From assembly GCA_963620575.1 (NCBI GenBank), contig CAVFBC010000001.1:111912-175911 (forward strand): DNA of 64,000 nt, given 5' to 3'. The DNA comes from Alistipes putredinis (GTDB lineage Bacteria; Bacteroidota; Bacteroidia; Bacteroidales; Marinilabiliaceae). This document shows positions 41,150 through 64,000 of the stretch, one piece after another. The notes under the pieces were generated by a model. It saw nothing but the letters and a program-made list of their open reading frames with translations. It did not search any database and was not told the DNA's origin. Position 1 is the stretch's first letter. Every line of letters starts with the position of its first letter. Position numbers and translations under genes: made by a program.

Positions 41150-41186
41150 GTCGGCATGGGCTCTTCGCCCAATGTCCTATAACAAT

Positions 41187-41623: not shown

Positions 41624-41667
41624 CAACCCCACCACGTTCTCTGAAACTGTTGGTGGGGTTTCTTTTT
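41624..41667 (+). terminator. Rho-independent terminator with no assigned gene upstream
   Basis: 10-bp perfect stem aaccccacca/tggtggggtt followed by tctttttg. Confidence 0.6.
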
Positions 41668-41769
41668 GCCTCTCAAAACCGAACAGATGATTATTTTCAG
41701 CGTATAATGGTGCGACATCTTTGCGCAGAATTAAATATATGTTGTATCTTTACGTAATTTTAGATTGAT

Positions 41770-42348
41770 ATGCTTATGACTAAAATAGGGGCCAATAAAG
41801 ACTTCCTTGAGTTCGCCTACCAGCTATATCACACAATGCAGGCCAACGAGATTAACCTCGTCTACGAAGGCGTTGTGACGCAGGAGATTACCAAGACATT
41901 TACAGCTCTCACCGAGAAGAACATGGTCAAAAACGAGGAGACCAGCCAGGTGCAGCGCAAGGTCTTCAATGTCATGGTTGAGTGTCTCCAGAACATATCT
42001 AAGCATGCCGACCCGATGGACGGTGAGGAGGATGAGGAACGCCGCGGCATTGTGCTCGTGTCTCATGGCGAGGCGAGCTATAACGTAATCACAGGTAACG
42101 TTATCAAGGCGGAGAAAAAGGCAGGTCTCGAAGCAACCCTTGAGCATATCAACAGCCTCGACAAGGAAGGCCTCTCAGCTCTCTACAAACAGCAGATTCT
42201 TGGTGGTAAGATCTCTGAGAAAGGTGGAGCCGGCCTTGGTTTCATTGACATAGCGAAGAAGAGCGGTAATAAGATCAACTATCAGTTCAAGGATCTTGAT
42301 GACAACTACTGCTTCTTCATCATTATCACGACAATATCACGTAATTAA
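41770..42348 (+). CDS. SiaB-like GHKL-fold protein kinase (anti-sigma-factor-kinase-like)
   Basis: 192 aa. VFNVMVECLQNISKHA (N-box-like) and EKGGAGLGFIDIAKKSG (G-box-like). It lies directly upstream of a DUF1987 gene, as in siaB-siaC. Confidence 0.6.
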   Translation: MLMTKIGANKDFLEFAYQLYHTMQANEINLVYEGVVTQEITKTFTALTEKNMVKNEETSQVQRKVFNVMVECLQNISKHADPMDGEEDEERRGIVLVSHGEASYNVITGNVIKAEKKAGLEATLEHINSLDKEGLSALYKQQILGGKISEKGGAGLGFIDIAKKSGNKINYQFKDLDDNYCFFIIITTISRN

Positions 42349-42369
42349 CAGACACACATACCCTAAACA

Positions 42370-42735
42370 ATGGACGTATTAGAAATAAAAGGCACTGATG
42401 ATACCCCTTCGGTATTGATGAACAAGGATGCCAATGTCATTGAGATCTCCGGCCGTTCACTCCCCGAGGACGTGGCTACCTTCTACAAGCCCGTCATGGA
42501 TTGGATCGACAAATACAAGGAGGAGCCCAATGACCATATCGATGTCTGCTTCAAACTCGAATATTTCAACACTGCCTCTTCTAAAATGCTTCTTGACATT
42601 CTCCTTAAGTTTGAGGCTATCTCTGACAAGGTGACCGTCAAGTGGTATTCTCACGAGGAGGAGGAGGATATCGAGGATGCCGGCAAGGAGTATGAGGACA
42701 TCGTCGAGGTTCCTTTTGAGTTCATTAAGTACTAA
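42370..42735 (+). CDS. SiaC-like DUF1987 regulatory (phospho)protein
   Basis: 121 aa. ISGRSLPEDVATFYKPVMDWI...FKLEYFNTASSKMLLDIL is the DUF1987 pattern, with Thr at residue 68 in YFNT. Confidence 0.7.
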   Translation: MDVLEIKGTDDTPSVLMNKDANVIEISGRSLPEDVATFYKPVMDWIDKYKEEPNDHIDVCFKLEYFNTASSKMLLDILLKFEAISDKVTVKWYSHEEEEDIEDAGKEYEDIVEVPFEFIKY

Positions 42736-42828
42736 AGCGGAGTTTTCCTGTTCGCAGTAAGTTTCGCACCGCTCAGCTTAACTGATTCTGGTGCGCCCCA
42801 CTACCCTATCTATTCCTACTAAAGCATT

Positions 42829-45800
42829 ATGAGTGAGGAGATTCTTGAACACCTGATGAACCTGTTCGGCATTCTTGCCAAGCAGGGTGGCGGTGCAACG
42901 GATGTTGAGATTAACTTCCTTAGTAAGTTTCTCAGCGACCAGATAGCCTCCGCCAAGGTGGGCGAGTATCTCGACAAGTTTAAGGAGAAAGCAAGCGAGC
43001 GCGCCCAGTTTGATGAGACTAAGGGTCAGATTGTCGTCGACATGAAGGATTCGATGAAGACCCTGAAAATCTGCCGCGCAGCAAACAAAGCCCTCTCAAA
43101 GGAGCAGAAAGTTGTCGTGCTTGTCCGACTCTTTGAGATGGAGCAAGTCTATGACGAGGCCTTCGGCGGGAAAATGGTCGCCGTAAAGGCTTGGAAGGGC
43201 AAGAGCCGCAAGGAGGCAGAGGAACTCGATGTCGAGGAGAGTGCTGAGACGATAATTAAGCTCCGTGAGGAGGTGGTCAAGACAGCAGGTGAGACCTTTA
43301 CCCTCGCCAAGGATGAGATTGACAATATCAAGCTCTTCTGCAACGCCCAGACGACCGCCGCCGCTCAACCGGTGGCTAATCTTGATAAACCCGATTTCCT
43401 CATAGCTGATGCTTGTGATGACGCTGCTTATTCTCAGGCGTGCCACATTGTCGATTCTACTATCGACGGCTTTTTCGCAATTCTCCGAATCGACAGCGCA
43501 AATCTTTTTTTCCTTAAATATCAGGGTTCGAGGGATGTCTCTATAAATGGTCTGACTGTAAACCCCGGCACGGTCTACCCTCTGCCGAGCGGATCGTTTG
43601 TCAAGACCCCTCGCGGATTGCTATATTACACGGACATAGCCGCACGACTCTCAAAGGAGGTTAATGTCCAAAAAATCTCCTTCGAGGTTAATCATGTCTG
43701 GTTCCGTTTTAAGACGGGCGGCATAGGCCTCAGAGACATTAATATGTTTGAGGAGCAGGGGAAGCTGGTCGGCATCATGGGTGCGTCTGGCGCTGGCAAA
43801 ACCACTCTTCTCAATGTTCTGTGTGGCAATGAGGCACCGTCTGAGGGCGAGGTCCTCATCAACGGGCTCAACCTGCATACTCAGAAAGAGCAACTTGAAG
43901 GCGTCATAGGCCTCATTCCCCAAGATGATTTGCTCATTGAGGAATTGACTGTCTATCAGAACCTTTATTACAGTGCCAAGCTTTGTTTCAAAGCTCTGTC
44001 TGAGGAGGAGATTAATGCCAAGGTTGAGAAGACTCTCCGTGACCTTGGTCTCTATGAGCGCAAAGATTTGCAGGTCGGCTCTCCTCTCAACAAGATGATT
44101 TCCGGTGGTCAGCGTAAGAGGCTTAACATTGCGCTTGAGCTTATTCGCGAGCCGGGCGTTCTCTTCGTTGATGAGCCTACATCAGGCCTCTCCAGCCGTG
44201 ACTCTGAGAATGTGATGAATTTGCTGCGTGAGTTGGCTCTCAAAGGCAAACTTGTCTTTGTCGTCATTCACCAGCCCTCGTCGGACATCTACAAGATGTT
44301 CGACAAGATGTTTATCCTCGATACCGGCGGTTATCCCGTCTATTATGGTAACCCGACAGAGAGTGTCATTCATTTTAAGACCGAGGATAACCAGACAAAT
44401 GCTGACGTAGGCCAGTGCCCCACTTGCGGTAACGTTAATCCCGAGTTGGTGTTCAACATATTGGATGCCAGCGAGAAGGATGAGTATGGTAATACAACTA
44501 ACCGCCGTAAGAAGAGTGCGGAGGATTGGAACAAGATTTATAATGAGAAGGTTCTCCCAAAGGTCCCGAGAGTGACGACGGTCAAGGAGACTCCGCCTAA
44601 GAGTCTCGACATCCCGAGCTGGTTCAAGCAGTTCTGGATCTACACACAGCGCGATTTCTGGGCCAAGATAAGCAACACACAGTACATAGCGCTCAATATT
44701 CTTGAGGCGCCTGTGCTTGGCTTCATCCTTGCCTACCTCATCCGCTACATTGTTGACCCCGACTCGGATGTCTATGTCTTCCGCGAGAACGCCAACATAC
44801 CCATCTACATATTCATGGGTACGGTGGTCGCCATTTTCTTCGGCCTTATCATAAGTGCCGAGGAGATTTTCAAGGACGCCAAAATCCTTAAGCGCGAGAG
44901 ATTCCTCAACCTCAGCCGCTCGGCATACCTTATGAGTAAGATTTTCATACTCATGGGCATATCAGCCATCCAGATGTTCCTTTTTGTGCTGGTTGGCAAC
45001 TGGGAGATATCGTTCACGGGCATGAACTTTGAGTTCTGGCTCATGCTTTTCACTGTGGCTGTCTCGTCAGATATTTTGGGTCTCATCATATCGTCCACGT
45101 TCAACTCCATCGTCACTATCTATATCATGATTCCACTTATCATGATTCCCCAGATGGTTCTCGGCGGAGCCATGTTCACGTTCGATAAACTTAACAAGGA
45201 TATTTCGGCGGTTGACAAGGTGCCTCTTGTCGCGGAGGTCATCCCCGCACGTTATGCATATGAGGGTCTCATTGTCTATCAGTACAAGAACAATGACTTT
45301 GAGAAGGTTTTCTTTGGAGACGAACTCCTTGAGCGTCAGGCCGATTTCAAGACTGTCTATTATCTGCCCAAGGTAAAGGATGTGCTCGATGCCGCCCGGA
45401 AGACTTACAAGTCAATGCCGGCGGATGACGATGCGGCTAAAGAGCAATACGAGGTAAATCTCGCACTCGTCAAAAACGAGCTCGGCAAGGAGACTCGCCG
45501 TGTGCCCGGCATCAAGTTTGACTCTCTTGACGAGATAACCCCCGAGTCGTTCTGTGACGACGTCTATAACGCGGCTGATGCCTATATCACCCAACTGAAT
45601 GACTTCTATCAGGATCAGTTCATGAAGGCGAATACTATGCGCGAGCGACGTATTAACTACTATCTCGAAAACCAGCCGGATGTCTACAACGCCCTCAAGA
45701 ACAGTTGCTACAACGAGGCTGTCTATGACGTCGTGACGAAGACTTTCGACAAGAATAAGATTCTTCGTGATGGCGACCGACTCATACAAATTAAGGACCC

Positions 45801-46098
45801 TATCTATCAGATTCCTGAGCCAGAGGGTATTCTCCGTTTCCGAAGCCAATTCTTCGCCCCCTATAAGTATTTCTTTGGCACATATATTGAAACTCTCTGG
45901 TTCAATGTGATTGCCGTATGGCTCATATCAGCATTCCTCTACGTAATTCTCTATTATGATGTGGCAAGGCGCTCATTCGAGGCGGTAGAGGATTTGCATA
46001 TCGGCAAAAGATTTGCAAAACTGAAACCAGTTTTCTCAAAGTGCGGATGCGTTATAAAGTCTTGTCTCTCAAAATCTAAGAAAGGGACGGATAAATAG
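42829..46098 (+). CDS. ABCG/White-type ABC transporter (NBD then ABC-2 TMD) with a roughly 300-aa N-terminal extension
   Basis: Walker A GASGAGKTT, signature ISGGQRKRLNIA, Walker B VLFVDEPTSGL, H-loop VIHQPS and C-terminal multi-TM ABC-2 region. The N-terminus has TerB-like helical repeats and an FHA-like beta segment SINGLTVNPGTVYPL; both assignments are weak. Confidence 0.85.
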   Translation: MSEEILEHLMNLFGILAKQGGGATDVEINFLSKFLSDQIASAKVGEYLDKFKEKASERAQFDETKGQIVVDMKDSMKTLKICRAANKALSKEQKVVVLVRLFEMEQVYDEAFGGKMVAVKAWKGKSRKEAEELDVEESAETIIKLREEVVKTAGETFTLAKDEIDNIKLFCNAQTTAAAQPVANLDKPDFLIADACDDAAYSQACHIVDSTIDGFFAILRIDSANLFFLKYQGSRDVSINGLTVNPGTVYPLPSGSFVKTPRGLLYYTDIAARLSKEVNVQKISFEVNHVWFRFKTGGIGLRDINMFEEQGKLVGIMGASGAGKTTLLNVLCGNEAPSEGEVLINGLNLHTQKEQLEGVIGLIPQDDLLIEELTVYQNLYYSAKLCFKALSEEEINAKVEKTLRDLGLYERKDLQVGSPLNKMISGGQRKRLNIALELIREPGVLFVDEPTSGLSSRDSENVMNLLRELALKGKLVFVVIHQPSSDIYKMFDKMFILDTGGYPVYYGNPTESVIHFKTEDNQTNADVGQCPTCGNVNPELVFNILDASEKDEYGNTTNRRKKSAEDWNKIYNEKVLPKVPRVTTVKETPPKSLDIPSWFKQFWIYTQRDFWAKISNTQYIALNILEAPVLGFILAYLIRYIVDPDSDVYVFRENANIPIYIFMGTVVAIFFGLIISAEEIFKDAKILKRERFLNLSRSAYLMSKIFILMGISAIQMFLFVLVGNWEISFTGMNFEFWLMLFTVAVSSDILGLIISSTFNSIVTIYIMIPLIMIPQMVLGGAMFTFDKLNKDISAVDKVPLVAEVIPARYAYEGLIVYQYKNNDFEKVFFGDELLERQADFKTVYYLPKVKDVLDAARKTYKSMPADDDAAKEQYEVNLALVKNELGKETRRVPGIKFDSLDEITPESFCDDVYNAADAYITQLNDFYQDQFMKANTMRERRINYYLENQPDVYNALKNSCYNEAVYDVVTKTFDKNKILRDGDRLIQIKDPIYQIPEPEGILRFRSQFFAPYKYFFGTYIETLWFNVIAVWLISAFLYVILYYDVARRSFEAVEDLHIGKRFAKLKPVFSKCGCVIKSCLSKSKKGTDK

Positions 46099-46187
46099 AG
46101 GGGTGTCTTATTTACCCGAAAAAACGGAAACAAAAATCATCATTCCATAGTATACTAAGGAAGAACAGGCTAATAATTAATTCTACT

Positions 46188-47114
46188 ATGAAAATCATTG
46201 CCAAAATCAATACTATCAAACTGGCCGCGGCTGCCGTCTGCGCATGCCTCATGACCTCTTGCGGCAGCGGCTCGTCAAGCAAAAATGCCAACGAGTTTGA
46301 TACTATCCCTCAAAATCTCATTGGCGAGCCACTTCAACTCTCAGAGAATGTGGTGAACGACATGATTCAGAATATCTCCTCTCCTGTTGAGATGGCAAAC
46401 CAGATTCTCAAGAGTGGAGCAGCTTTTGACCAGTCTGTTCTTAATGACGCTGAGAGGATGAAGGATTACAGCACCAGATTCAAGCGTTCGCTTAACCTTG
46501 GCGTCTATAGTGCGGATCTTGGCTATATCAATACGTTCAATAAGAACAGTGTTGTCGTCTCTTACCTTCTTGCTGTCAAGGAACTCGCTGACGGCATTAG
46601 TGTCGGTCAATTCCTTGATTTCAACACACTAAGCCGACTCGCAAAGAATAACACAAACCTTGATTCTCTCAAGCAGCTCTCCGTCTCAAGCTTCAACGAG
46701 ATGGATAAGTATCTTCGCAAGAATAACCACTCGAGTGTGTCAACAGCCATTGTGGCTGGCGCATGGGTAGAGGGTATCTACATTACTTGCCGAGTCATTG
46801 AGCAAACTAATGACGCTGAACTTATTAACCGACTTGGCGAGCAGAAAGACATTGTCGGCATTCTTCTCATCATCCTCAACAACTATAGCAAGGGCGATGC
46901 TAATTTCCAGGCACTCGTTAGCAAGGTTGACGAAGTGAAGAAGATTTATGACGACGTGGTGATAACTTATGAGCTTGGCGAACCTGTCACGACTGAGAAA
47001 GATGGCATGCTTGTCATCGAGCAGAACGAGATAACTCACGTCAAGATTACGCCCGAGCAGGTCTCAAGCATTATTGCCAAGATTAAGGATCTCCGCCAGT
47101 TTATTGTTGACTAA
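46188..47114 (+). CDS. Helical lipoprotein of unknown function (module copy A, large subunit)
   Basis: Lipobox LMTSC; roughly 65% identical to the product of 47682-48587. Confidence 0.7.
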   Translation: MKIIAKINTIKLAAAAVCACLMTSCGSGSSSKNANEFDTIPQNLIGEPLQLSENVVNDMIQNISSPVEMANQILKSGAAFDQSVLNDAERMKDYSTRFKRSLNLGVYSADLGYINTFNKNSVVVSYLLAVKELADGISVGQFLDFNTLSRLAKNNTNLDSLKQLSVSSFNEMDKYLRKNNHSSVSTAIVAGAWVEGIYITCRVIEQTNDAELINRLGEQKDIVGILLIILNNYSKGDANFQALVSKVDEVKKIYDDVVITYELGEPVTTEKDGMLVIEQNEITHVKITPEQVSSIIAKIKDLRQFIVD

Positions 47115-47144
47115 GAAACCCTACATTTTCCACATACATCTATC

Positions 47145-47588
47145 ATGAAGCAGTTGTTATTATCCCTCGTAGCCATTTTCGGTATGGTCTCTTCTGTCAA
47201 CGCTCAGTGCGGTGACGAGCTCATGAAGCAGGCTCTTGGCGCCATGGGGAATTATCAGTATATCAAGGACTTTGATATTAAACTCCAAGGCGGAACAAGC
47301 AAGGTCGGCACTAAGTTCTCTGTCGTCCTCAACAGCCGTACTCACTATCAGGTCAACATAGCCAATGGCTCCGGCAACAGCGAGAATGTGGTTGTCGAGA
47401 TTTATGACGGCGATAAGTTGATTGGCTCAAACAATGCCAACGGTAAGGTTTTCACTGCTTTCCAGTTCATCTGCTCTAAGACTGGGGCTTACAAGCTCCA
47501 TGTTTGCACAGTAGGTGGAACAGAGGCTTGCGCCCGTGCTGTCCTCTCCCTTGTCAAGCAGTACTCCGAGGCCGAAATGCCTAAGTAG
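47145..47588 (+). CDS. Small secreted 4-Cys beta-rich protein (module copy A, small subunit)
   Basis: SPI signal ending VNA|QCGDE; roughly 94% identical in the mature part to the product of 48593-49033. Confidence 0.7.
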   Translation: MKQLLLSLVAIFGMVSSVNAQCGDELMKQALGAMGNYQYIKDFDIKLQGGTSKVGTKFSVVLNSRTHYQVNIANGSGNSENVVVEIYDGDKLIGSNNANGKVFTAFQFICSKTGAYKLHVCTVGGTEACARAVLSLVKQYSEAEMPK

Positions 47589-47681
47589 CAATCTCGGAAA
47601 ATTAACCAAACGACTAATAATCACAATGTCATCCGATTTGCCTTTGGTAGCGTCGGATTTGATACTAAAAGACTCTTAAAA

Positions 47682-48587
47682 ATGAATTTTAAGGCACTCA
47701 TCGGTGGTCTCGCTGTCCCCGCTGTAATATTCTCTATGGCCTCATGCTCTTGTGGCAGCGATAACGGCCAACTTAATAACAACATCACCGAGGAGAAAGC
47801 AGACTCTGAACTTGTTGTAAGCGGCGAGGTTGTCAGCGACATGATTCAGAATATCTCTTCCCCTGTCGAGATGGCTAATGAGATTAAGAATTCTGGTGTC
47901 GGTTTTTCTAGGGATATTCTCAACGAGGCCGGTAAAGAAGGTCAGTATGAGACAAATTTCAAGAAAGCTGTGAATCTTGGTGTTTATGCTGCCGATCTCG
48001 GCTACATCAACACGTTCAGCAAGACTACTGTTGTTGTCGATTACTTGACCTCTATCAAGCGACTTGCAGACGGACTCGGTGTCGGTCAGTTCCTTGATTT
48101 CTCAACTCTTTCCGCTCTTGCCAAGAATAGCACAAATCTCGATTCGCTCAAGCAGCTCTCTGTCAATAGTTTCAACAACATTGACAAGTATCTTCGTGAG
48201 CAGCATCGTTCAAATATCTCAACTGCCATTGTAGTTGGCACTTGGATTGAGGGCATTTACATCACGGGTCAGGTCATTTCTCAAACCAATGACAAGGGTC
48301 TTGTCGACCGTCTTGGCGAGCAAAAAAATATTGTTGAGATTCTCGACATCGTTGTCAGCAGCCGCACTGAATCTGAATTCAAGAACCTTGGCAAGATGAT
48401 GGGTGATCTCAAGTCAATCTATGACGGAGTCCGAATTACAACCGAGCTGGGCCAGCCTGTGACTAAGGAGGTTGACGGTATGCTTGTCATTGAGCAGAAC
48501 GAGATAACTCATGTTGAGATTACTCCTGAGCAGGTTAACTCTATCATCGAGCAGGTCAACGCCATCCGCAACTCAATCATCCGATAA
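47682..48587 (+). CDS. Helical lipoprotein of unknown function (module copy B, large subunit)
   Basis: Lipobox SMASC; paralog of 46188-47114. Confidence 0.7.
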   Translation: MNFKALIGGLAVPAVIFSMASCSCGSDNGQLNNNITEEKADSELVVSGEVVSDMIQNISSPVEMANEIKNSGVGFSRDILNEAGKEGQYETNFKKAVNLGVYAADLGYINTFSKTTVVVDYLTSIKRLADGLGVGQFLDFSTLSALAKNSTNLDSLKQLSVNSFNNIDKYLREQHRSNISTAIVVGTWIEGIYITGQVISQTNDKGLVDRLGEQKNIVEILDIVVSSRTESEFKNLGKMMGDLKSIYDGVRITTELGQPVTKEVDGMLVIEQNEITHVEITPEQVNSIIEQVNAIRNSIIR

Positions 48588-51209: not shown

Positions 51210-51282
51210 TCGGGATTAGGCGACTCGAACGCCCGACCCCCACGTCCCGAACGTGGTGCGCTACCAACTGCGCTAAATCCCG
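51210..51282 (-). tRNA. tRNA-Pro (anticodon CGG)
   Basis: Reverse complement CGGGATT TA GCGC AGTTGGTA GCGC A CCACG TTCGGGA CGTGG GGGTC GGGCG TTCGAGT CGCCT AATCCCG A folds as a cloverleaf with a 7-bp acceptor stem. No encoded CCA. Confidence 0.93.
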
Positions 51283-54994: not shown

Positions 54995-55173
54995 CAAATG
55001 TTTAACTTTGTTGCTGAGTATCCGAGCGTATCGGGTAATACAAACAAACAGAAATATAGCCTTTTATAAAACAGGCGCTATCTCGAAACCAAATAATCAC
55101 TTAACTCTAAAAACAGAGCTATTCTATTATGTTGGGAAATAATGATGGCTCCTTTACAAAAGAACGACCGAGC

Positions 55174-55701
55174 ATGCCTATGATAAAGAAATTACTTGTC
55201 ACTCTGGTTTTAACCCTGACGATGGCGCATGGCGCATTCGCCCAGGATCAATTGGCAAAGCCTAAGGCTCTGCTCACTCTTAGTTTCATCCGTTACCTCG
55301 GTTGGAGCGACGCTGCGAGGCAGGGTGACTTTGTCATCGGCGTGGTCCGCGACAGGGAGCTCGCCTCTTGGTTGACGTCTCAGTCCGAAGGTAAGAAATT
55401 CGGCTTCCAAAATGTCGTCGTCAAGAATTTCAAGTCTGTCGACGAGGTGGTAGACTGTCAGGTAATCTACGTCTCCCACAACATCAGCTTCGCCCGCAAC
55501 GCCTCCACCATCATCGACAAGGTCGGCAAGGACACACTGATTATCACGGAAGAGGAGGGCGCCGTCAAGAGCGGGGCGATGATTAACTTTGTCATCCGCG
55601 ACAGCAGGCTCAAATTCGAGCTCAGCAAGAGCAACGCACAAATGTCTAACATACAGTTCGGTCAGAAACTAACTGACATGACTGCAGCGATAAACATGTA
55701 A
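55174..55701 (+). CDS. YfiR-family (DUF4154) periplasmic protein
   Basis: Signal peptide [23 protein letters not shown]|QDQ. The pattern FIRYLGW...VIGVV.D...CQVIYVS...LIITEEEG....GAMINFV..D.RLKFELS..NA matches DUF4154 as I recall it. Confidence 0.6.
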
Positions 55702-55714
55702 TCTTAGAACAACA

Positions 55715-57460
55715 ATGAAGGGTATATCTCTCAAGGAGCGTGTCTCGAAGATGAATCTGGCGCAGAAGCTCGTGTCGGGCTTCGGCGTCATTTGCGTGTT
55801 CATCCTCCTCAACTCAATCCTTACAATAGCCATCCATTTCTACACCCGCAACCTTCAGGAGACTGAGGCTAACGAGTATCTCCCCGTCAAGTCTAACCTC
55901 GAGGTCATGATGAACAAGATTGTCGAGAGCCGCAGACTTGTGGTAAACTGGGTGTTTGTTGATCATCAGCCCAACACGCCAGATAAGGTCAAGCTCGCCG
56001 CCATCGTCAATGAGGAGTTTGACGCTGTCCTCAATGAGGTCAAGGAGGCTACTGCCGATTGGGAGACTCCCTTCACTGACACTCTCGCTATCGTTGACAC
56101 CAAGGTTCACGAGATGTTCGACCTTGAGAAGACCGTCATGAGCAACCTCTCCTCTTTCGACTCGTATGACGACCCCATCCTCCTCATGGAGAGTGAAATG
56201 CTCGTCCAGAGTGATGGCGATGTTGAGATGGCTGAGCGTGAGTTGCAGACTCTCATGTCCTCCCTCAGCGGCATTTGCGACGCCAAGTGCAATGACATTA
56301 AGCATTCTATTAATACCTCTGCCTCCATCCAGCTCGTCTTTGTCATCCTCATGAGTCTCCTCGTGCTCGGTGTGGCTGTGGTTGTCGGCCGAGTCCTCTA
56401 TATGAGCATCATTAATCCTCTCAAACGAGGTGTCGTGTTTGCCGAGGCAATTGGCAAGGGTGACCTCACGGCGCAAGTCCAGGTCGACCAGGATGATGAG
56501 ATTGGTCAGCTGTCCAAAGCCCTCCAGGGCATGGTCGAGAGCCTCAAACACACTGTCGTCTCGATTGAGCGCAACGCTAACGAGCTCGTCACCTCGGGCT
56601 CCCTCCTCAACACTTCAAGCCAGAAACTGTCAAAGGGCGCAAGTGAGCAGGCCGCAAGCGCCGAGGAGGTCTCTACGGCTATTGAGCAGATGGTGGCCAA
56701 CATTGACCAGAACACTGAGAACGCCATAGCAACCGAGAAACTGACCGCCTCGACTGTTGAGAATGTCAACCTCTCAAGCCAGTACTCTGGCGAAGCTGCC
56801 GAGGCTATGAAGACTATATCTGAGAAAATCTCAATCATCTCAGACATTGCGTTCCAAACCAATATACTTGCACTCAACGCTGCCGTCGAGGCCGTTCGAG
56901 CAGGTGAGCAGGGTCGCGGCTTCTCTGTCGTGGCTGCCGAGGTCCGTAAACTCGCTGAGCGAAGCAAGCAGGCCGCCAATGAGATTGTATCCCTTGTTAA
57001 CAAGGGTCTGAAGGTCACTCAGATGGCTGGTGAGAAGGCAAAGGCTCTTGTACCGGACATTGAGAAGACCACCGTGCTCATCAAGGAGATTTCTGCGGCA
57101 AGTATCGAGCAGAAAACAGGTGCCGAGCAGATTAACATGGCGATGCAGAACCTCAACGTCATCACTCAGGAGAACGCTTCAAGCTCCGACGAGTTGACTA
57201 ACAGCTCTGTCCTCCTCTCTTCTCTCGCTTCTAACCTCAAGCAGGCTGTCGGCTATTTCAAGCTTGATGAGGAAGCCGAGGCTGCGACCGGGGCAACGGC
57301 CGAGGTCGAGAAAAAGCCAGAAGAGCCCAAGGCAAAGGTTGAGACGGCAAAGCCAGAGCAGACTCGCCATGAAGACCCAAAGCCTATGGGTGGCGTCAAG
57401 ATTAACCTCGGAAACATTAACTCTAAAGAGTTCGATCTCGACAATTACGAGAAGTTCTAA
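55715..57460 (+). CDS. Methyl-accepting chemotaxis protein (helical periplasmic sensor, HAMP, MA domain, long C-terminal tail)
   Basis: Two TM helices, [27 protein letters not shown] and hairpin tip [37 protein letters not shown]. The tail ends ...DLDNYEKF. The start could instead be Met13 (55751). Confidence 0.92.
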
Positions 57461-57587
57461 TGCCAAAGTAGCTGGAGGTGGAGATGCCAAACCAATGAAT
57501 GATTGGCGTGTCCACCCCATGGCTTTATGAGGCTCGAAGTCCTGAATCCCAGCACAAGTCTTCAAACAGTACACTAAAGGTCAGATT

Positions 57588-57899
57588 ATGAGCAGCGTTT
57601 ATAGCCTCGAGATTTCACAGGCTGACGGCAAGAAGAACTTGAAGTTCGGAGGTGACCTTGTCATTAACCATATTGACAAGATGACCAAGGAACTCCGTGA
57701 GGCTCTCCCCTCGCCTACCGATTTGCGTGTCGAGGTGGCGGATCCGCAGAATATCGACATGACGTTCATTCAGCTTGTAGTAGCCCTCCGCCGGATGACG
57801 GAGAACGCTGGCAAGAAGTTCGAGGTGCAGACCACTCTGAAGGACGACCTGAAGGAGCTGGTTCAAAAGGCCGGCTTAGACAAGGAGTTGAAAGTTTAA
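57588..57899 (+). CDS. STAS-domain protein (anti-sigma-antagonist fold)
   Basis: 103 aa. The alternating beta/alpha pattern KFGGDLVINHIDKMTKELREAL...LRVEVADPQNIDMTFIQLVVALRR is typical of single-domain STAS proteins. Confidence 0.6.
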   Translation: MSSVYSLEISQADGKKNLKFGGDLVINHIDKMTKELREALPSPTDLRVEVADPQNIDMTFIQLVVALRRMTENAGKKFEVQTTLKDDLKELVQKAGLDKELKV

Positions 57900-57969
57900 G
57901 TAAGCCCCTTAGAAAAGACAACTTACAAACCCCCAAATTAACGACATATCCATTTTTTATAGTAACAAT

Positions 57970-58335
57970 ATGGCAAAGACAGTTCTTATTGTAGACGACT
58001 CCGAGAGTATCCGCGAGGTGGTCAACTTCACTTTGACCAACGAGGGCTACGATGTTTTGGTTGGCGTTGACGGCGAGGACGCACTCAAGTTCCTCGATGG
58101 CAGGCCTATCGACATTGTCATCACTGACCTCCACATGCCTAACCTTGACGGCCTCGGTCTCATCCGCAAGGTTCGTGAGATGGATGCTTACAAACACATT
58201 CCTATCCTTTTCCTCACAACTGAGAGCCAGACAGAGAAGAAGATGGAGGCCAAGGAGGCTGGCGCGACGGGTTGGATCATCAAGCCTTTCGTCCCCGCTA
58301 AGCTCCTCAGCGCCATCTCAAGGGTGCTCCGTTAG
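57970..58335 (+). CDS. cheY: CheY-like single-domain response regulator
   Basis: DD (LIVDDS), phospho-acceptor Asp in VITDLHMP, Thr in LTTES and Lys in IIKPF. Confidence 0.92.
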   Translation: MAKTVLIVDDSESIREVVNFTLTNEGYDVLVGVDGEDALKFLDGRPIDIVITDLHMPNLDGLGLIRKVREMDAYKHIPILFLTTESQTEKKMEAKEAGATGWIIKPFVPAKLLSAISRVLR

Positions 58336-58372
58336 AAAATATACCCTCTTCTTAGTCAATGTATTGTAGTCC

Positions 58373-60529
58373 ATGTTAGACAGATTTCAACAGAAATTCG
58401 TAGAGGAAGCGCAGGACAACGTGGCAGCCATCGAGGAGGCCTTGTTCGAGCTCGAAAAGAGTCCGGATGACAAGGAGATCGTCGAGAGGCTGTTCCGCTC
58501 CATGCACACCATCAAGGGTAGCGGCGCAATGTTCGGGTTTAACGACCTGAGCCATTTCACCCACAACCTTGAGACTCTCTATGACTGTGTCAGAAACGAC
58601 ACGGTGAAGGTGAACAGTGATATCATCTCGCTCACTTTCGAGAGTTTGGACTACATCCGGCAGCTTCTTGAGGTCGGCGAGGGAACTCTTACTAACCCCG
58701 ATGACATTCAGCGGCAGAAGGATTACATTGCCAAGATTACCAAGTATTTCCCCGAGGGTCAGACTCTGACCCTCAGCAGTGCCGAGAAGGCGGCCTTAGC
58801 TGCTAAGCAGGCTGCCGGTGGGGCGGCAGCACAGGCTCAAGTCCCTGCTCAGCCCGAGGTCAAGGGGCCAAAGAACTATTTAGTCACCTTCGCGCCTTTT
58901 GAGTCCCTTCTCAATAATGGCACGAACCCCCTCTTCATGCTCGACGACCTCACTGCGCTCGGCAAGTACCGCACCGTGGCTTTCACAGGAGTGGTTCCGG
59001 CACTTGACACGTTCGAGCCTCTGAATCTATATGTCAAATGGCAGGTTGTCCTCAGCACTGATCAGGACGTCAATGACATTAAGGATGTCTTCATCTTCGT
59101 CGAGGATGAGTGCCGAATGGACATTGTCGAGTTGCCCGAGGGTGATATCATCGGTGCGGCAGATAAACTGGACCCGATTCTGAAAAAGGCCATTGAGACT
59201 CAGACCGAGCTCAAGGCTGATGATTTCGTCATCTTCAAGTCTGCTCCTAAACCTGAGCCTGCCAAAACTGCCAAGGCGGCCGAGCAGAGCAAAACAGCCG
59301 GCGCCGCTAAGCAGCAAGAGAGCAAGATAGCGAGTATCCGAGTCTCTGCTGAGAAGATTGATGACCTTGTTAATGCGGTCTCTGAGCTTGTCACCATGCA
59401 GGCTCAGCTCAACCTCTTGGCGGGCAAGCAGACAGACCAAAATCTTGTCGCGATCGCCGAGCAGATGGAAAAGATAACCCGCCAGTTGCGCGAGAACTCT
59501 TTCTCCATCTCCCTTATCCCTCTTCAGGGTGAGCTCGTCCAGTTCCAGAGGCTTGTCAGGGACTTGTGCAACAAGCTCGGTAAGCAAATGGAGTTTGTCG
59601 TGGAGGGTGGTGAGATTGAGCTTGACAAGACCATCATTGACCATCTCAAGGACCCGTTGCTCCATATCATAAGAAACTCAGGCGACCATGGCATTGAGAT
59701 GCCCGATGAGCGAATTAAGAAGGGTAAGAACCCTATGGGTACCATTCTTCTTAAGGCTTTCTATTCGGGCTCGTCAGTCATAGTTCAGGTCTCTGATGAT
59801 GGCAAGGGCATGGACCCTGACAAGATCTTGAAAAAGGCTGTTGAGAAGGGGCTTGTGGATAACACGGCGCGCCTTTCCAAAAAGGAGGTCCTTAACCTAA
59901 TTTTTGCCAGCGGCTTCTCTACTGCCGATAAGGTGAGTGATGTGTCTGGCCGAGGTGTCGGCATGGATGTCGTCAAGAGCAAGATTGCCGAGATACGAGG
60001 CGAGGTCACTGTTGACTCCGAGGTGGACAAGGGTACTACCATCACCATGGAGCTCCCACTGACGCTTTCCATTATAGACGGTCTTCTTACCCGTATAGGT
60101 GGTGAGCAGTATGTATTCCCATTCACTAATGTTGAGCGAATCCTCCAACCCTCAGAGGTCGTGATGAGCGAGAACGGAATGGGCGACTTTTTCACCTATA
60201 ACGGTCAGCAGCTCGTTTTCATCGACCTCAATAAGATTTTCAACGGCTCGACCACAGATTTGTCTAAAGCCAAGCTGCTCATTGTCGGGCAAGGCGATAA
60301 GCGTGTCGGCATGATTGTGGATGCTGTCTTGGGTGAATATCAGATTGTTGTCAAACCCTTGGGACGTTTCCTCCGCTCGGTGGACATGATTTCGGGTGCC
60401 TCTGTCATGGGCGATGGCTCCCTCTCTCTCATCATTGACCCGGGTCGTCTCGTCAACTACTTCAACCAGTTGCGTTTCCGTAGGAAGGCCGCTTTTGCGG
60501 CTCAGGCGGGTGACGCCCAAAACGCATAG
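58373..60529 (+). CDS. cheA: Chemotaxis histidine kinase CheA
   Basis: Hpt with SMHTIKGSG, a dimerisation region, HATPase (DDGKGMD, GRGVGMDVV) and a C-terminal CheW-like domain. Confidence 0.95.
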   Translation: MLDRFQQKFVEEAQDNVAAIEEALFELEKSPDDKEIVERLFRSMHTIKGSGAMFGFNDLSHFTHNLETLYDCVRNDTVKVNSDIISLTFESLDYIRQLLEVGEGTLTNPDDIQRQKDYIAKITKYFPEGQTLTLSSAEKAALAAKQAAGGAAAQAQVPAQPEVKGPKNYLVTFAPFESLLNNGTNPLFMLDDLTALGKYRTVAFTGVVPALDTFEPLNLYVKWQVVLSTDQDVNDIKDVFIFVEDECRMDIVELPEGDIIGAADKLDPILKKAIETQTELKADDFVIFKSAPKPEPAKTAKAAEQSKTAGAAKQQESKIASIRVSAEKIDDLVNAVSELVTMQAQLNLLAGKQTDQNLVAIAEQMEKITRQLRENSFSISLIPLQGELVQFQRLVRDLCNKLGKQMEFVVEGGEIELDKTIIDHLKDPLLHIIRNSGDHGIEMPDERIKKGKNPMGTILLKAFYSGSSVIVQVSDDGKGMDPDKILKKAVEKGLVDNTARLSKKEVLNLIFASGFSTADKVSDVSGRGVGMDVVKSKIAEIRGEVTVDSEVDKGTTITMELPLTLSIIDGLLTRIGGEQYVFPFTNVERILQPSEVVMSENGMGDFFTYNGQQLVFIDLNKIFNGSTTDLSKAKLLIVGQGDKRVGMIVDAVLGEYQIVVKPLGRFLRSVDMISGASVMGDGSLSLIIDPGRLVNYFNQLRFRRKAAFAAQAGDAQNA

Positions 60530-60531
60530 CC

Positions 60532-60978
60532 ATGGATGAAATTAAGTCGGTCACCTCTTTCAAGGTTGGCGGTGAGTACTTCGCCTTCGAGACCGAGTCC
60601 ATAAGACATATTCTTGAGTATAGCGCACCCACTCGTGTGCCGCTGACCAAGCCTTTCATAAAGGGGATTATCAACAACCATGGTAACATGATTCCCGTGG
60701 TTGATTTCCGTGTCCTTGTCGGCAAAGAGTCTGATGACAGCCAACCCGAGCAAAGCATCGTGGTGGTGGCCTTTGAGACGGCTGGCAAGGAGGAACTTTG
60801 TGGTTTCAAGGTCGATGAGATGGACGATGTCTTTGAGTTCTCGCACGAGAATTTCAAACCCGAGGTGGTCATCGATGTGAACCCTGAGGTACAACGCGCG
60901 GCGGCCGGGACTATCAAGGTGGGCGACAAGTTTGTCTACCTCCTCAAGACGTCTGAGCTTGCCGACGCCCTTGTTTAA
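60532..60978 (+). CDS. cheW: CheW coupling protein
   Basis: 148 aa CheW-like fold (FKVGGEYFAFETESIRHIL...IKGIINNHGNMIPVVD); 2-nt gap after cheA. Confidence 0.88.
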   Translation: MDEIKSVTSFKVGGEYFAFETESIRHILEYSAPTRVPLTKPFIKGIINNHGNMIPVVDFRVLVGKESDDSQPEQSIVVVAFETAGKEELCGFKVDEMDDVFEFSHENFKPEVVIDVNPEVQRAAAGTIKVGDKFVYLLKTSELADALV

Positions 60979-61005
60979 ATTTCTCATCACTCCTAAACAG
61001 AGTCA

Positions 61006-61494
61006 ATGGAAGAAGAAATAATCAACTCGTTCCTGACCTTCGAGGTTAATGGCGGAATATACGGATTGCACGTGGCTAAGGTCGTCGAGATTATGGCCTA
61101 CGTCAAGCCTCAGGCCACAGGTGCTTCTGTCCCAGCCATGATTGGCATGGTCGAGCACCGCGGACGAGTGTTGCCACTCATAGATAGTGGGCTGAAGTTT
61201 AACGCAGGCCCAGTTAAAATCACTGAGCAGACCTATATTATAGTCATTTCAGTCCGAAATGGAGACGAGTTGTTCGACGTAGCCTTGGCTGTCGATCTTG
61301 TCCGCGAGGTGATGGAGATACCAGAGGACAAGCGTCTTGCCATTGACACAACATACAAGCCTGGCTATGTGCTCTTCGCAAGCCAGACTCCTGACGGACT
61401 TGGCATGTTCTTCGACCCCGACAAGGTGTTCACAGACACCGATGTCATTAAGATGGCCGAGTTTACAGCCAAGGCCAATAAACAGACCTGCTGA
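61006..61494 (+). CDS. cheW: Second CheW coupling protein
   Basis: 162 aa, FLTFEVNGGIYGLHVAKVVEIM...MIGMVEHRGRVLPLID. Confidence 0.85.
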   Translation: MEEEIINSFLTFEVNGGIYGLHVAKVVEIMAYVKPQATGASVPAMIGMVEHRGRVLPLIDSGLKFNAGPVKITEQTYIIVISVRNGDELFDVALAVDLVREVMEIPEDKRLAIDTTYKPGYVLFASQTPDGLGMFFDPDKVFTDTDVIKMAEFTAKANKQTC

Positions 61495-61498
61495 GCCT

Positions 61499-62377
61499 AT
61501 GCCAGACCTGACTTCATCGCCCTCGGGAAACATAGGAGACGAGTTTGACTGCTTCAGGGCCGAGCTTTCGCAAGCCGACTTCAAGCAGTTTAGCGAGTAT
61601 ATTTATGCGCAGTTCGGAATCAAGATGCCCGAAATCAAGCGCGTGATGCTCCAAGGCCGCCTCCTGAAACGGATCCGGGAGCTCAAGATGAAGTCTTATA
61701 CCGAATACAAGAAATACTTTTTCAGCCCCGAGGGGCAAAGAAACGAGCTTTATAACTTTCTTAGTGTAGTCACTACCAACAAGACCGATTTCTTCCGCGA
61801 GCCTGTCCACTTCGACTTCCTCCGCAATGTGGCTCTCCCGGAGTTCATGGCTGAGGGGCGAAACCGCATCAATGTTTGGAGCGCGGCTTGCTCAAGCGGA
61901 GAGGAGCCCTACACGATGGCTGTGGTCCTCAGTGAGTTCGCCGAGCAGCACCCGGGCTTCTCTTTTAGCATCCTTGGCTCTGACATATCGCAAAACGTCC
62001 TTGAGAAAGCAGCGCGTGGAGTCTATCCGGAAAAATTGGTTGACATGATCCCTCTCGAACTAAAGAGGAAATATTTCCTCCGCAGTAAGGACAGAACTAA
62101 CCCGACAGTGAGGGTCTCACCAATGCTTCAGAGGAACTTTTCTCTGAAATATTTAAACCTGATGGACCCTGTTTACGATATAAACGTTGAATTCGATGTG
62201 GTCTTCTGCCGAAATGTGTTAATTTACTTCGACAGGGAGACTCAGGAGAAGGTTATCCAAAAAATCTGCACCAAGCTCAGAAAGGGAGGATACCTCTGCA
62301 TCGGACACTCGGAGTCCATGAGTAACATGGATGTGCCACTCACTAACGTAAAGCCCACTATTTTCAAAAGAAACTAA
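61499..62377 (+). CDS. cheR: Chemoreceptor glutamate methyltransferase CheR
   Basis: N-terminal helical domain FKQFSEYIYAQFGI and SAM domain INVWSAACSSGEEPYTMA...VVFCRNVLIYFD. The start is set at the internal ATG 4 nt after the cheW stop. Confidence 0.92.
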   Translation: MPDLTSSPSGNIGDEFDCFRAELSQADFKQFSEYIYAQFGIKMPEIKRVMLQGRLLKRIRELKMKSYTEYKKYFFSPEGQRNELYNFLSVVTTNKTDFFREPVHFDFLRNVALPEFMAEGRNRINVWSAACSSGEEPYTMAVVLSEFAEQHPGFSFSILGSDISQNVLEKAARGVYPEKLVDMIPLELKRKYFLRSKDRTNPTVRVSPMLQRNFSLKYLNLMDPVYDINVEFDVVFCRNVLIYFDRETQEKVIQKICTKLRKGGYLCIGHSESMSNMDVPLTNVKPTIFKRN

Positions 62378-62387
62378 CCCGTTCGAT

Positions 62388-63311
62388 ATGGATATCAACA
62401 ACGTCACTGACAAACAACTGCTCAAGCTCCTCAAGCAAAGACTTGAGGATAAGTCTGAAATGGAGAAAAAATTCGCCGAGCTTCAGACTGAGTGCCAGAC
62501 TATGGGCAAGAGGCTTAAGGACTCTGAGGCTCTCAAGAGCCACTTCATATCGAATGTAACAAACGAGATTGTCAACCCTTTCACTTCCATCATCGGCCTC
62601 TCCAAGGCTATTCTCTCTGTCGAGAAGCAGGACTGGAAGAAAATTGTCTCGATGGTGGCTCTCATCCACAACGAGGCTTTCAATCTCGATTTTCAGCTGA
62701 AGAACATCTTCACGGCTGCGAAGATTGAGGCGGGAGAGATTCTTCCCAACGTCCAGAAGGTCCATATCAGGCAGCTCATTCAGAATGTCATAGACTCGTT
62801 CTCTATCGTGACCCGCAAGATGGGTATCGACATTGAGTTCGATTATGAGATACAGCTCGGTTTCGGCGAAAAGGACTATTATTTCAACACCGACTCCGAC
62901 AAGCTCAAACAAATCATCAGCAATATACTCAACAATGCCGTCAAGTACAGCTACAAGGACAGCAAGGTTATTGTTAAGTGTTGGATTGATGACGACCTGC
63001 TTTTCATCTCAATCCAGGATTTCGGAACCGGCATCTCGGAGAAGAACCAGAACATCATTTTTGAGAGGTTTAAGCGTCTCGACACCGGCATCAACTCTAT
63101 CAACCAGGGCCACGGTCTCGGATTGGCCATTGCCAAGGCTCTGCTCGACGTCCTTGAGGGCAAAATTGACATCAAGAGTGTCAAGGGCGAGGGCTCTACC
63201 TTCACCATCTCAATCCCGAGACTCAAGGTCGTCAACACAGACCCGTTCGGCGGCGATGATGGGGGAATGTTTTTTGACACGGACTCTGACGACGACGTGG
63301 ACCTGTTTTAA
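62388..63311 (+). CDS. Soluble histidine-kinase-like protein (DHp plus HATPase_c) with a degenerate H-box
   Basis: No TM or sensor domain. The H-box region reads KSHFISNVTNEIVNPFTSIIG, with Asn where the phospho-His is expected. N box ISNILNNAVKYS, G1 IQDFGTGI and G2 GHGLGLAI are intact. The tail is acidic. Confidence 0.8.
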   Translation: MDINNVTDKQLLKLLKQRLEDKSEMEKKFAELQTECQTMGKRLKDSEALKSHFISNVTNEIVNPFTSIIGLSKAILSVEKQDWKKIVSMVALIHNEAFNLDFQLKNIFTAAKIEAGEILPNVQKVHIRQLIQNVIDSFSIVTRKMGIDIEFDYEIQLGFGEKDYYFNTDSDKLKQIISNILNNAVKYSYKDSKVIVKCWIDDDLLFISIQDFGTGISEKNQNIIFERFKRLDTGINSINQGHGLGLAIAKALLDVLEGKIDIKSVKGEGSTFTISIPRLKVVNTDPFGGDDGGMFFDTDSDDDVDLF

Positions 63312-63323
63312 CCTCCCCGACGA

Positions 63324-63797
63324 ATGGAGTATTCACAGCATTTCTTATACCCCTCGTCATTCTTCGCCAGTAAGGACCCATATGTGGTCAAGACTGTTCT
63401 CGGCTCATGTGTGGCGGTCTGTCTCTGGGACAAGACGTTGCACTATGGAGGCATCAACCACTATATGCTGCCCTATTGGACCGGAAATGACCTGGCTTCG
63501 CCCAAATATGGCAACATAGCCATTGAAAAACTTGTCGAGAAGATGAGGTTCATGGGCTGTCGGGTCGAGGACCTTGAGGCGAAAATCTTTGGCGGTGGCG
63601 AGCTCATCGATTCAATCGACGGACGCTCCGTGACGCAGATTGGCGAGAGGAACATCGAAGTGGCCAAGCGTTTGCTGGCCGAATATAAGATACCCATCGT
63701 AAGCTCGTGCGTCGGTGGAAAGAAGGGACGAAAAATCCTTTTCTTTACCGACAATGCAGAGGTCAGACACAAGTATCTCGATAAGAGGACTTTCTGA
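63324..63797 (+). CDS. cheD: Chemoreceptor glutamine deamidase CheD
   Basis: 157 aa, LGSCVAVCLWD catalytic-Cys motif and GGINHYMLP. Confidence 0.88.
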   Translation: MEYSQHFLYPSSFFASKDPYVVKTVLGSCVAVCLWDKTLHYGGINHYMLPYWTGNDLASPKYGNIAIEKLVEKMRFMGCRVEDLEAKIFGGGELIDSIDGRSVTQIGERNIEVAKRLLAEYKIPIVSSCVGGKKGRKILFFTDNAEVRHKYLDKRTF

Positions 63798-64000
63798 CCA
63801 GCTTCGACACAACAGAAACAATAATCACTGACCGTCCAGCCGATGCGGAGACCCGATTTGGCGTCTCGGCTCGCTGGCCGGCTTGAGTGTTAAATAAGGA
63901 CGGACATTAACAATCCGAGCGGCGCACTTGCCGCAAGGGTTAAGCAGACCCGCAACACGGGCCGAAAGATGAGATTCTAACGGCATGGAAAATAAGATCA

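Follow-up and report, generated by a model that had tools for sequence, protein, structure and literature searches.

A conserved F7/F8-like chemosensory cluster with a histidine-less kinase-like protein beside cheD in Marinilabiliaceae-level Bacteroidales

Among described chemosensory (Che) pathways, cluster III of Vibrio cholerae, Che2 of Pseudomonas aeruginosa and Che1 of Shewanella oneidensis stand closest to the one reported here, sharing with it the gene order (STAS)-cheY-cheA-cheW-cheW-...-cheR-cheD-cheB, a CheY of the CheY4 type, the presence of CheD and the absence of CheZ, CheC and CheV. The operon in question lies at the 3' end of a 64,000-nt stretch of DNA (hereafter the window) from Alistipes putredinis (assembly GCA_963620575.1, contig CAVFBC010000001.1, positions 111,912-175,911 of the forward strand), an organism thought to be without flagella, unlike the hosts of the three reference systems. 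Our preferred reading, held with a probability of about 0.5, is that the operon encodes an intact, vertically inherited and non-flagellar F7/F8-like pathway, in which phosphorylated CheY (CheY-P) would be turned over by a HisKA protein lacking its phospho-acceptor histidine (the His-less protein) and which would be coupled to a SiaABC-type switch.

Beyond the shared frame, the window differs from these three systems in several parts. It lacks the Aer2-type soluble PAS-heme receptor, its own receptor being transmembrane and of class 34H rather than 36H, and it adds a YfiR-like gene, the His-less HisKA gene before cheD and a second CheR/CheB set. Che2, too, includes a receptor that bears a C-terminal pentapeptide tether. 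The F7 che1 locus of S. oneidensis carries a STAS/PP2C-kinase switch, CrsA/CrsR (PMC9855816); the PP2C of CrsR/CrsA is REC-linked, whereas the switch associated with the window cluster is of SiaABC type, with a sensor-linked PP2C.

Rhizobial Che1 (Sinorhizobium meliloti and Agrobacterium fabrum; class F7) resembles the window in encoding a STAS protein of ~100 aa between the receptor gene and cheY-cheA, and in having CheD. The likeness of the window protein to rhizobial CheS is one of position and domain. Rhizobial Che1 drives flagella and has two CheY proteins (phosphate sink) and CheT, whereas the window has one CheY and no CheT. Alphaproteobacterial F8 clusters (Rhizobium leguminosarum Che2 and the Shinella and Methylosinus plasmid loci) are like the window in their 34H class, two CheW proteins and leading STAS-cheY-cheA genes, but they lack CheD and the His-less kinase, and their receptor genes lie between the two cheW genes.

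With P. aeruginosa SiaABCD the window clade shares a PP2C phosphatase, a SiaB-family kinase and a SiaC with an aligned phospho-Thr; unlike SiaABCD, it has a TerB-ABC-2 exporter in place of SiaD, a phosphatase with GAF and PAS sensors, and a junction with a Che cluster. DivL of Caulobacter crescentus is a His-less kinase look-alike that reads a phosphorylated single-domain regulator, DivK-P. In Bacillus cereus the CheR-like RsbM reportedly methylates a non-MCP sensor, RsbK, above a PP2C partner switch (PMC12848376). The comparisons with DivL and with RsbK/RsbM/RsbY are ones of analogy, not orthology.

Every building block of the cluster is already of a known kind. What appears to be undescribed is this combination of parts, its lineage-wide presence in bacteria that presumably have no flagella, and the Asn-for-His HisKA family tied to cheD. 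The possibility, raised by an earlier note on this DNA, that an orthologous Bacteroidota cluster had already been characterised found no support: the literature searched yielded no characterised Che orthologue from Bacteroidota or Marinilabiliaceae. None of the outcomes that the note had named as refuting its reading was encountered.

Gene content and class of the chemosensory core

Domains were called by a Pfam scan with curated cutoffs, NCBIfam serving as a second library. All ten Che-region open reading frames (ORFs) listed in the earlier note were present on the + strand, each backed by Pfam above these cutoffs, which bears out the head-to-tail ten-gene operon with intergenic gaps of 2-127 nt described there; the cheD-cheB gap is 187 nt. 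A scan with one genome per species gave 27 related genomes, with CheA 62-97% identical, from human (Hadza), goat, cattle, yak, sheep, horse and reindeer gut samples. Their placement rests on submitter labels (Bacteroidales/Marinilabiliaceae, a few clearly wrong) and on how similar their proteins are to those of cultured Marinilabiliaceae.

The array opens with a YfiR-like periplasmic protein with a signal peptide (DUF4154; 55129-55701; PF13689, 89.9 bits), the true start of which is probably at 55174 or 55180 and which scored 77.5 bits, under the cutoff, to the NCBIfam TOL_0243 YfiR-like model. The YfiBNR partners are absent: the DUF4154 protein stands alone, without YfiN cyclase or YfiB lipoprotein, and its neighbour is a methyl-accepting chemotaxis protein (MCP) gene, which it precedes in 27/27 related genomes as well as in Carboxylicivirga and Thermophagus. 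The MCP (55715-57460) is a transmembrane receptor with a periplasmic domain of ~160 aa, a HAMP domain and a 34H signalling domain (HAMP and MCPsignal in Pfam). Its C-terminus consists of a variable linker followed by a conserved GVKINLG...DNYEKF tail, and the terminal xYExF is invariant in 29 orthologues. By its sequence xYExF is a variant of xWxxF, the CheR and CheB tether that reportedly occurs often in Bacteroidetes receptors (PMC7390727); the window CheR is nearest to the pentapeptide-binding Salmonella enzyme.

There follow a STAS-only protein (57588-57899; PF13466, STAS_2, 34.3 bits), a CheY consisting of a receiver (REC) domain only (57970-58335; Pfam) and a CheA (58373-60529) with P1 Hpt, P2-position, P3, P4 and P5 domains, among which Pfam recognised the Hpt, dimerisation, HATPase and CheW domains. 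Two CheW proteins come next (60532-60978 and 61006-61494; PF01584, 88.1 and 65.6 bits), then a 292-aa CheR methyltransferase (61499-62377; Pfam), closest among solved structures to Salmonella CheR (1AF7/1BC5, 157.5 bits); its real start is the ATG at 61499, the mechanically called ORF having begun at a TTG at 61337. The His-less protein (62388-63311) and a predicted CheD deamidase (63324-63797; PF03975, 93.7 bits) complete the listed set. At 63985-64000 the start of CheB is truncated by the window end, and near-identical contigs show a 386-aa CheB (REC and methylesterase) at the very ATG, at 63985 (MENKI...), where the earlier note had suggested that it could begin.

The MCP signalling domain, the P1, P3, P4 and P5 domains of CheA and CheW all scored above curated Pfam cutoffs, and direct reading of the sequence confirmed that the catalytic motifs are intact, as had been claimed: the H-box and the N/G1/F/G2 boxes in CheA, the DD/D/T/K residues in CheY, the SAM motif in CheR and the Cys/His pair in CheD. 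The catalytic GSS, His and Asp of CheB are legible in a near-identical contig (L001), so that the adaptation enzymes CheR and CheB both have their catalytic residues. No CheZ, CheC, CheX, CheV or FliY was found in the cluster.

By gene order the core falls with F7, having the cluster-III/Che2 order, with CheD and without CheZ, CheC, CheX or CheV. A Vibrio chromosome-2 locus reads STAS_2, CheY, CheA, CheW, CheW, MCP, CheR, CheD, CheB, which the window order matches, and V. cholerae cluster III has that composition (PMC3774744). The closest solved relative of the window CheY is V. cholerae CheY4 (106.7 bits, 47% identity), compared with ~76 bits for the flagellar VcCheY3 and Escherichia coli CheY; VcCheY4 is unable to bind FliM (PMC3774744). 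Alignment of the MCP with E. coli Tsr, on the other hand, gave two symmetric 7-residue gaps flanking the hairpin, which places the receptor in class 34H rather than 36H, and it is F8, not F7, that pairs with 34H and two CheW proteins, F7 pairing with 36H (PMC8429497). The window thus has the 34H receptor and two CheW of F8 and lacks the CheD-less core of that class; the annotated F8-like loci of Shinella and Methylosinus likewise begin with a STAS gene, and they have no CheD. A strict F7 assignment was dropped on account of the receptor, and since cluster-III order and a CheY4-like CheY go together with 34H, the core is filed, on sequence, as F7/F8-like. Of the Che2/F7 likeness proposed earlier, gene order and CheY4 similarity therefore stand and strict F7 membership does not.

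A STAS gene lies directly 5' of cheY-cheA in Vibrio, Chondrinema, Chitinophagaceae, Shinella and Methylosinus clusters also, and a profile built from 28 STAS orthologues matched a STAS protein encoded directly 5' of one or other of these two genes in Chondrinema (E = 9e-15), in metagenome-assembled genomes (MAGs) of Chitinophagaceae and Desulfohalobiaceae, and in a distant Bacteroidales MAG (L034); comparison with solved structures gave no usable relative. In place of the Ser or Thr of a DSSG-type motif, 28/28 sequences have Met or Ile at the canonical phospho-Ser position, and the equivalent motif, DAAG in Vibrio and DLAG in Chondrinema, has no Ser or Thr either. A phospho-switch role for STAS was set aside in our preferred reading on these grounds. 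The conservation profile of CheA shows a folded segment (residues ~165-255) that is well conserved, unlike the linkers on either side of it, and Dogra et al. in 2012 reportedly located the binding of S. meliloti CheS to CheA at the matching P2-position region. CheS is a STAS-only protein encoded 5' of cheY1-cheA, which binds CheA and promotes CheY1 binding (PMC12654446; PMC8429497). With a single STAS domain of ~100 aa encoded directly 5' of cheY-cheA, the window protein is best read as CheS-like.

Some variation was seen in and around the core genes. One MAG has a cheA that is ~400 nt longer than elsewhere and matches in two pieces (L028:10001-12538), which suggests that a linker region has been expanded or has taken up an insertion. 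Carboxylicivirga caseinilyticus has an additional 132-aa Hpt-only ORF between cheY and cheA (L044:5709-6107), absent in the gut lineage and in Thermophagus. The cheD-cheB spacer (63798-63984) is G+C-rich and folds slightly better than shuffled sequences (z = -2.2); it was set aside as an element, being variable in length, much shorter in relatives and without an Rfam match.

A HisKA/HATPase protein without its phospho-acceptor histidine

The gene between cheR and cheD had been labelled HK-like, which is right for its HATPase/HisKA architecture (HATPase_c and a weak HisKA match in Pfam, corresponding to DHp and CA domains) and wrong as regards the phospho-acceptor His, which is absent. Aligned with WalK and VicK, the H-box FVSNVSHELRTPL reads FISNVTNEIVNPF, with the pattern N-E-x-x-N-P; its N, G1, F and G2 boxes remain intact, and an acidic C-terminal tail closes the protein with Phe as the last residue. 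The change from His to Asn is found in 29/29 orthologues, that of the distant Bacteroidales MAG included.

An exhaustive search of representatives at 50% identity recovered ~143 stand-alone proteins of ~300 aa, for which the source annotation is the generic 'histidine kinase' only. Asn occupies the phospho-acceptor position in 141/143, followed by Glu at +1 (93%), Asn at +4 (97%) and Pro at +5 (99%); conservation in the N, G1, F and G2 boxes is 89-99%, and the acidic tail terminates in Phe in 100/125. In 6/6 contexts, namely the window clade and five loci outside it (L034, L048, L049, L050 and L051), the gene adjoins cheD on the 5' side, the usual order being cheR, His-less gene, cheD, cheB, and the proteins from the non-clade contexts are 34-43% identical to that of the window.

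In the kinase CrdS, replacement of the His by Ala (H371A) kills kinase activity and keeps most of the phosphatase activity, whereas the +4 substitution N375A loses the phosphatase (PMC3510030). The Asn at +4 of the His-less protein matches the Thr/Asn expected of a phosphatase-competent DHp domain at this position. Conservation of the His-less protein and of CheY co-varies. In Bacillus subtilis and Thermotoga maritima a CheY-P phosphatase, CheC, acts with CheD, and is the classical partner of the latter. Given that precedent, the co-conservation with CheY and the lack of CheZ, CheC and CheX, the His-less protein is, as judged from sequence, most likely a CheY-P phosphatase acting with CheD. 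Its resemblance to the known phosphatases lies in its place beside cheD, a Glu-x-x-Asn motif and an acidic Phe-ended tail recalling the CheY-binding tail of CheZ; its DHp and CA fold is wholly unlike that of CheC or CheZ, and the phosphatase role is a predicted one. The acidic tail was also considered as a CheR/CheB pentapeptide and rejected, position 2 not being aromatic.

Extent, conservation and setting of the cluster

An identical CheD was found on contigs of 220-318 kb, which reveal the genes 3' of cheD. On the same strand and with short gaps these encode CheB, a 629-aa TM-GAF-PAS-PAS protein, CheR2, CheR3 (CheR-like, its SAM motif degenerate), CheB2 (a methylesterase without a REC domain), a membrane protein of 343 aa whose C-terminus is GAF-like (its JC017 orthologue scores to GAF_2), an 882-aa TM-GAF-PAS-PAS-SpoIIE (PP2C) protein and a DUF6272 protein of the SiaB kinase family (NCBIfam, above cutoff). 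In CheR3 (L001:14697-15497; 29 bits to the CheR model) PCLSSYHE replaces the SAM motif GCSTGEE; kept in all relatives despite this, it is probably a pseudo-enzyme.

Further parts of a Sia-type switch lie inside the window, in a block (39362-48587) located 13 kb 5' of the Che operon. On the + strand it encodes a second, orphan MCP with a sCache-type sensor, HAMP and signalling domain (39362-41149), a SiaB-family Ser/Thr kinase (DUF6272; 41770-42348; PF19788, 143.9 bits), a SiaC-family phosphoprotein (42370-42735; PF09345, 127 bits) and a 1089-aa fused ABC_tran and ABC-2 exporter with an N-terminal extension of ~290 aa (42829-46098). The block ends with two paralogous ORFs, orf308 and orf301, lacking assigned function. 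Family membership of SiaB was clear (NCBIfam SiaB_fam_kinase, NF038262, 167.6 bits for the kinase at 41770-42348; 167.6 and 142.6 bits overall, cutoff 85), and the phospho-Thr of SiaC aligned with that of P. aeruginosa SiaC (6KKO), YFNT matching YLNT. The PP2C SpoIIE domain scored 144.7 bits to SiaA, against an equivalog cutoff of 700, and its N-terminal architecture differs. The Pseudomonas partner switch works through Thr68 of SiaC, the phosphorylation of which is set by SiaA and SiaB (PMC7647112). No SiaD-type GGDEF domain was found in the cluster or the window, the ABC exporter following siaC instead; because its gene follows siaC as siaD does, the exporter is by analogy a likely candidate for the SiaC effector.

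In the cultured strain JC017 (Marinilabiliaceae) the PP2C, SiaB, SiaC, TerB-ABC exporter and orf306 genes directly continue the Che array, and the same SiaB-SiaC-TerB-ABC block recurs in a further locus (L047). The exporters of both, encoded immediately 3' of siaC, carry PF05099 (TerB), which is sub-threshold in the window copy. In many genomes siaC and the gene for the His-less protein share contigs as small as 19-27 kb. As the JC017 array runs unbroken into the Sia block, the ancestral unit can be put at ~22 genes, and the SiaB-SiaC-exporter block of the gut lineage appears to have moved to the other side of ribF. The signalling unit as a whole comprises ~19-22 genes, of which the Che operon in the window is the front half. 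The 'complete operon' of the earlier note therefore stands as to its ten intact genes and falls short as to extent, the true unit being about twice as long.

A putative Bacteroidetes-type -7 promoter box, TAACTTTG, is located at 55003-55010 (+), right after the ribF stop and 5' of the first gene. Boxes of the form TANNTTTG are enriched in the window (49 found versus 28.6 expected); none lies on the + strand from 55592 to 64000, and a terminator scan found no + strand terminator inside the cluster. The lack of both fits a single long transcript. Matches from a sigma-70 promoter scan are uninformative for Bacteroidetes.

In 27/27 genomes the array runs from DUF4154 to the GAF protein, 3' of ribF, as far as the retrieved DNA extends, and in one of the loci (L040) it reaches all the way to the SiaB kinase; a metagenome scan with the PP2C protein gave one useful locus only. 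Median identities to the window strain across the 27 species-level genomes were 97% for CheY, 89% for the HK-like (His-less) protein, 85% for CheB, 80% for CheD, 78% for CheA, CheR, DUF4154 and GAF-PAS, and 73% for MCP, compared with 59% for RibF and 58% for STAS. The identities of the Che core exceed that of RibF, which argues for tighter constraint than on this housekeeping gene, and the cluster is under very strong purifying selection. CheY is 91-100% identical over the entire clade. Carboxylicivirga caseinilyticus and Thermophagus xiamenensis retain the array from DUF4154 through the PP2C phosphatase, with CheY 95% and 91% identical and CheA just 51% and 47%, respectively; a SiaB-family gene after PP2C is present in Thermophagus and was not seen in Carboxylicivirga. 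Orthologues of the His-less protein in cultured Marinilabiliaceae are 65-69% identical. Cluster-bearing genomes with the record titles Pseudobutyrivibrio sp., Bifidobacteriaceae, Eggerthellaceae and Clostridium sp. CAG:343 (L014, L017, L030 and L032) are probably mislabelled bins.

Codon use, earlier judged by eye to resemble that of gltB and susC, was now computed: third-position G+C (GC3) of the Che genes is 0.61-0.70, like gltB and susC, and their synonymous codon use shows a correlation of 0.956 with that of the other window genes. Judged from this match and from its position 3' of ribF in 27 genomes, the cluster is native and vertically inherited. The central claim of the earlier note, an intact native Che pathway in a Bacteroidales genome bearing a polysaccharide utilization locus (PUL), was upheld; its view that Che pathways are uncommon in Bacteroidales needs qualifying, since this cluster is no rarity and runs through a whole Marinilabiliaceae-level clade, cultured species included.

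The remaining window is occupied by the SusC/SusD locus, gltBD and housekeeping genes. The PUL reported earlier is real and of beta-glucan type (15912-29788), with a Reg_prop regulator on the minus strand, SusC (19203-22406), SusD (22446-24011), a Big_2 protein, GH16, a glycoside hydrolase (GH) catalytic core with CBM6/35, and GH3. A stretch of low GC holds a transposase gene of the PD-(D/E)XK family (6458-7450, minus strand). Between comEC and ribD lies one tRNA gene (51210-51282, minus strand), the sole match of an Rfam scan of the whole window. As stated in the earlier note, the 64 kb hold no fli, flg, mot, pil or gld genes, none of these families matching among ~40 window ORFs in the domain scans, and motility families were likewise unmatched in ~50 retrieved loci.

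Proposed working and competing explanations

From the gene content, motifs, conservation and synteny observed, we infer the following protein-protein steps and output. Input would enter through the YfiR-like protein and the periplasmic domain of the 34H receptor, with a contribution from at least one orphan Cache receptor, and the receptors would govern CheA via the two CheW proteins. The CheS-like STAS protein may dock on CheA and tune phosphotransfer to the sole CheY. CheR, CheB and CheD would adapt the receptors, the enzymes being tethered by the C-terminal xYExF pentapeptide. The His-less protein, predicted to be unable to autophosphorylate, would act on CheY-P as a dedicated phosphatase, in CheC's place beside CheD. 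The signal would go not to a flagellar motor but to the SiaA-like PP2C/SiaB/SiaC switch, with the TerB-ABC-2 exporter as its likely effector. CheR2, the pseudo-CheR and CheB2 would probably methylate or modify the TM-HAMP-GAF-PAS sensors of the Sia branch, an assignment suggested by analogy with RsbM/RsbK. The pathway probably controls something other than swimming, given that relatives described as gliders without flagella share the cluster and that the unit adds a kinase look-alike and a Ser/Thr switch.

Several observations weigh against this scheme. The 34H receptor is at odds with strict F7; a pure phosphatase leaves the conserved ATP-binding boxes unexplained; and the Thr beside the canonical STAS site, conserved in 27/28, leaves STAS phosphorylation possible. 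The PP2C protein lacks a receiver domain, and no route from CheY-P or CheA to it is apparent. Other Bacteroidota clusters with the His-less protein (L048, L051 and L034) lack the Sia extension, so that the universal target of CheY may lie elsewhere, and several receptors with a full adaptation set are more typical of taxis. These last points lead to a reading that we regard as possible if unlikely, in which CheY-P biases direction or reversal in type IX secretion system (T9SS) gliding or surface spreading and the Sia and ABC genes are separate neighbours. Marinilabiliaceae are described as gliding or non-motile, without flagella, and the supercluster occurs in cultured members of this family; Breznakibacter is the former gliding Cytophaga xylanolytica. 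Receptors with varied sensors, CheR/CheB/CheD and the pentapeptide tether are taxis-like, extreme CheY conservation would be expected of a partner in a conserved machine, and elsewhere in Bacteroidota the Che core occurs together with the His-less protein in the absence of Sia genes. Directly after cheB, the distant Bacteroidales MAG encodes a BNR/SprB-repeat protein of 903 aa that carries a C-terminal T9SS sorting domain (L034:7926-10637). Against gliding, no Che genes are known from the model gliders, gliding is not known from the gut and rumen lineage, neither the window nor the conserved cluster was found to contain a gld, spr or T9SS gene, and the nearest characterised systems (Che2, cluster III and Che1so) have no motility role. 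On the side of gliding, the CheY-like domain of PorX reportedly binds the T9SS motor protein PorL (PMC5005315, PMC10951265). The composite claim, that receptors, CheA and the near-invariant CheY steer T9SS gliding as its missing sensory system and that the His-less protein with CheD forms a new CheY-P phosphatase module resetting the signal, we consider decidedly doubtful.

The conserved ATP-binding boxes keep another alternative alive, which we rate as quite improbable: that the His-less protein is itself the output effector, its DHp domain reading CheY-P in the manner of DivL and DivK-P and its ATP domain phosphorylating a Ser/Thr substrate, for example STAS. Besides the conservation of these boxes over 143 representatives, a marginal match to HATPase_c_2, the anti-sigma kinase type (28.5 bits versus a cutoff of 27.4), the presence of DivL among the solved relatives, the conserved Thr beside the STAS site and the joining of STAS with a PP2C-kinase regulator at the S. 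oneidensis F7 locus are consistent with it; the Met or Ile at the canonical site, with DAAG and DLAG in Vibrio and Chondrinema, speaks against it, as does a gene-order partner that is cheD rather than STAS, and a STAS protein evolving as fast as 58% identity would fit poorly as the substrate of an enzyme at 89%. Ordinary flagellar or type IV pilus chemotaxis, with motility genes beyond the window, is very improbable. Our view of the genome takes in 64 kb plus ~10 kb, and S. meliloti F7, with CheS and CheD, does drive flagellar chemotaxis (PMC8429497), but the CheY nearest to that of the window is the non-FliM-binding VcCheY4, the cluster has no CheZ, CheC, CheX, CheV or FliY, no motility family appeared in ~50 loci, and the cultured Marinilabiliaceae carrying the cluster are described as non-flagellated. 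The chance that we are looking at a decaying or recently transferred relic with no present function is negligible: the degenerate SAM motif of CheR3 and the missing His of the HK-like protein might be taken for decay, but every ORF is intact, codon use is native, the Asn is fixed over at least 141 clusters at 50% identity with the other motifs kept, and a Che core more conserved than ribF in 27 species contradicts it.

To our knowledge, the outputs of the Che2, cluster III and Che1so pathways are unsettled in Pseudomonas and Vibrio. Shewanella Che1 'could be' involved in RpoS regulation (PMC9855816). The cluster joins to a pathway of this kind both a SiaABC-type switch with an exporter, as candidate downstream parts, and an accessory family hitherto unrecognised, the Asn-for-His HisKA proteins beside cheD; it thereby yields testable hypotheses on signal termination and output. 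The gliding reading, if true, would make it the first chemotaxis pathway to be linked with T9SS gliding, and would hint at the original purpose of Che2/cluster-III-type systems. The hypotheses can be tested in culture because cultured Marinilabiliaceae carry the cluster, and since gut metagenomes of humans, ruminants and horses commonly contain the lineage, a behaviour or envelope response under the control of this system could matter for gut colonisation.

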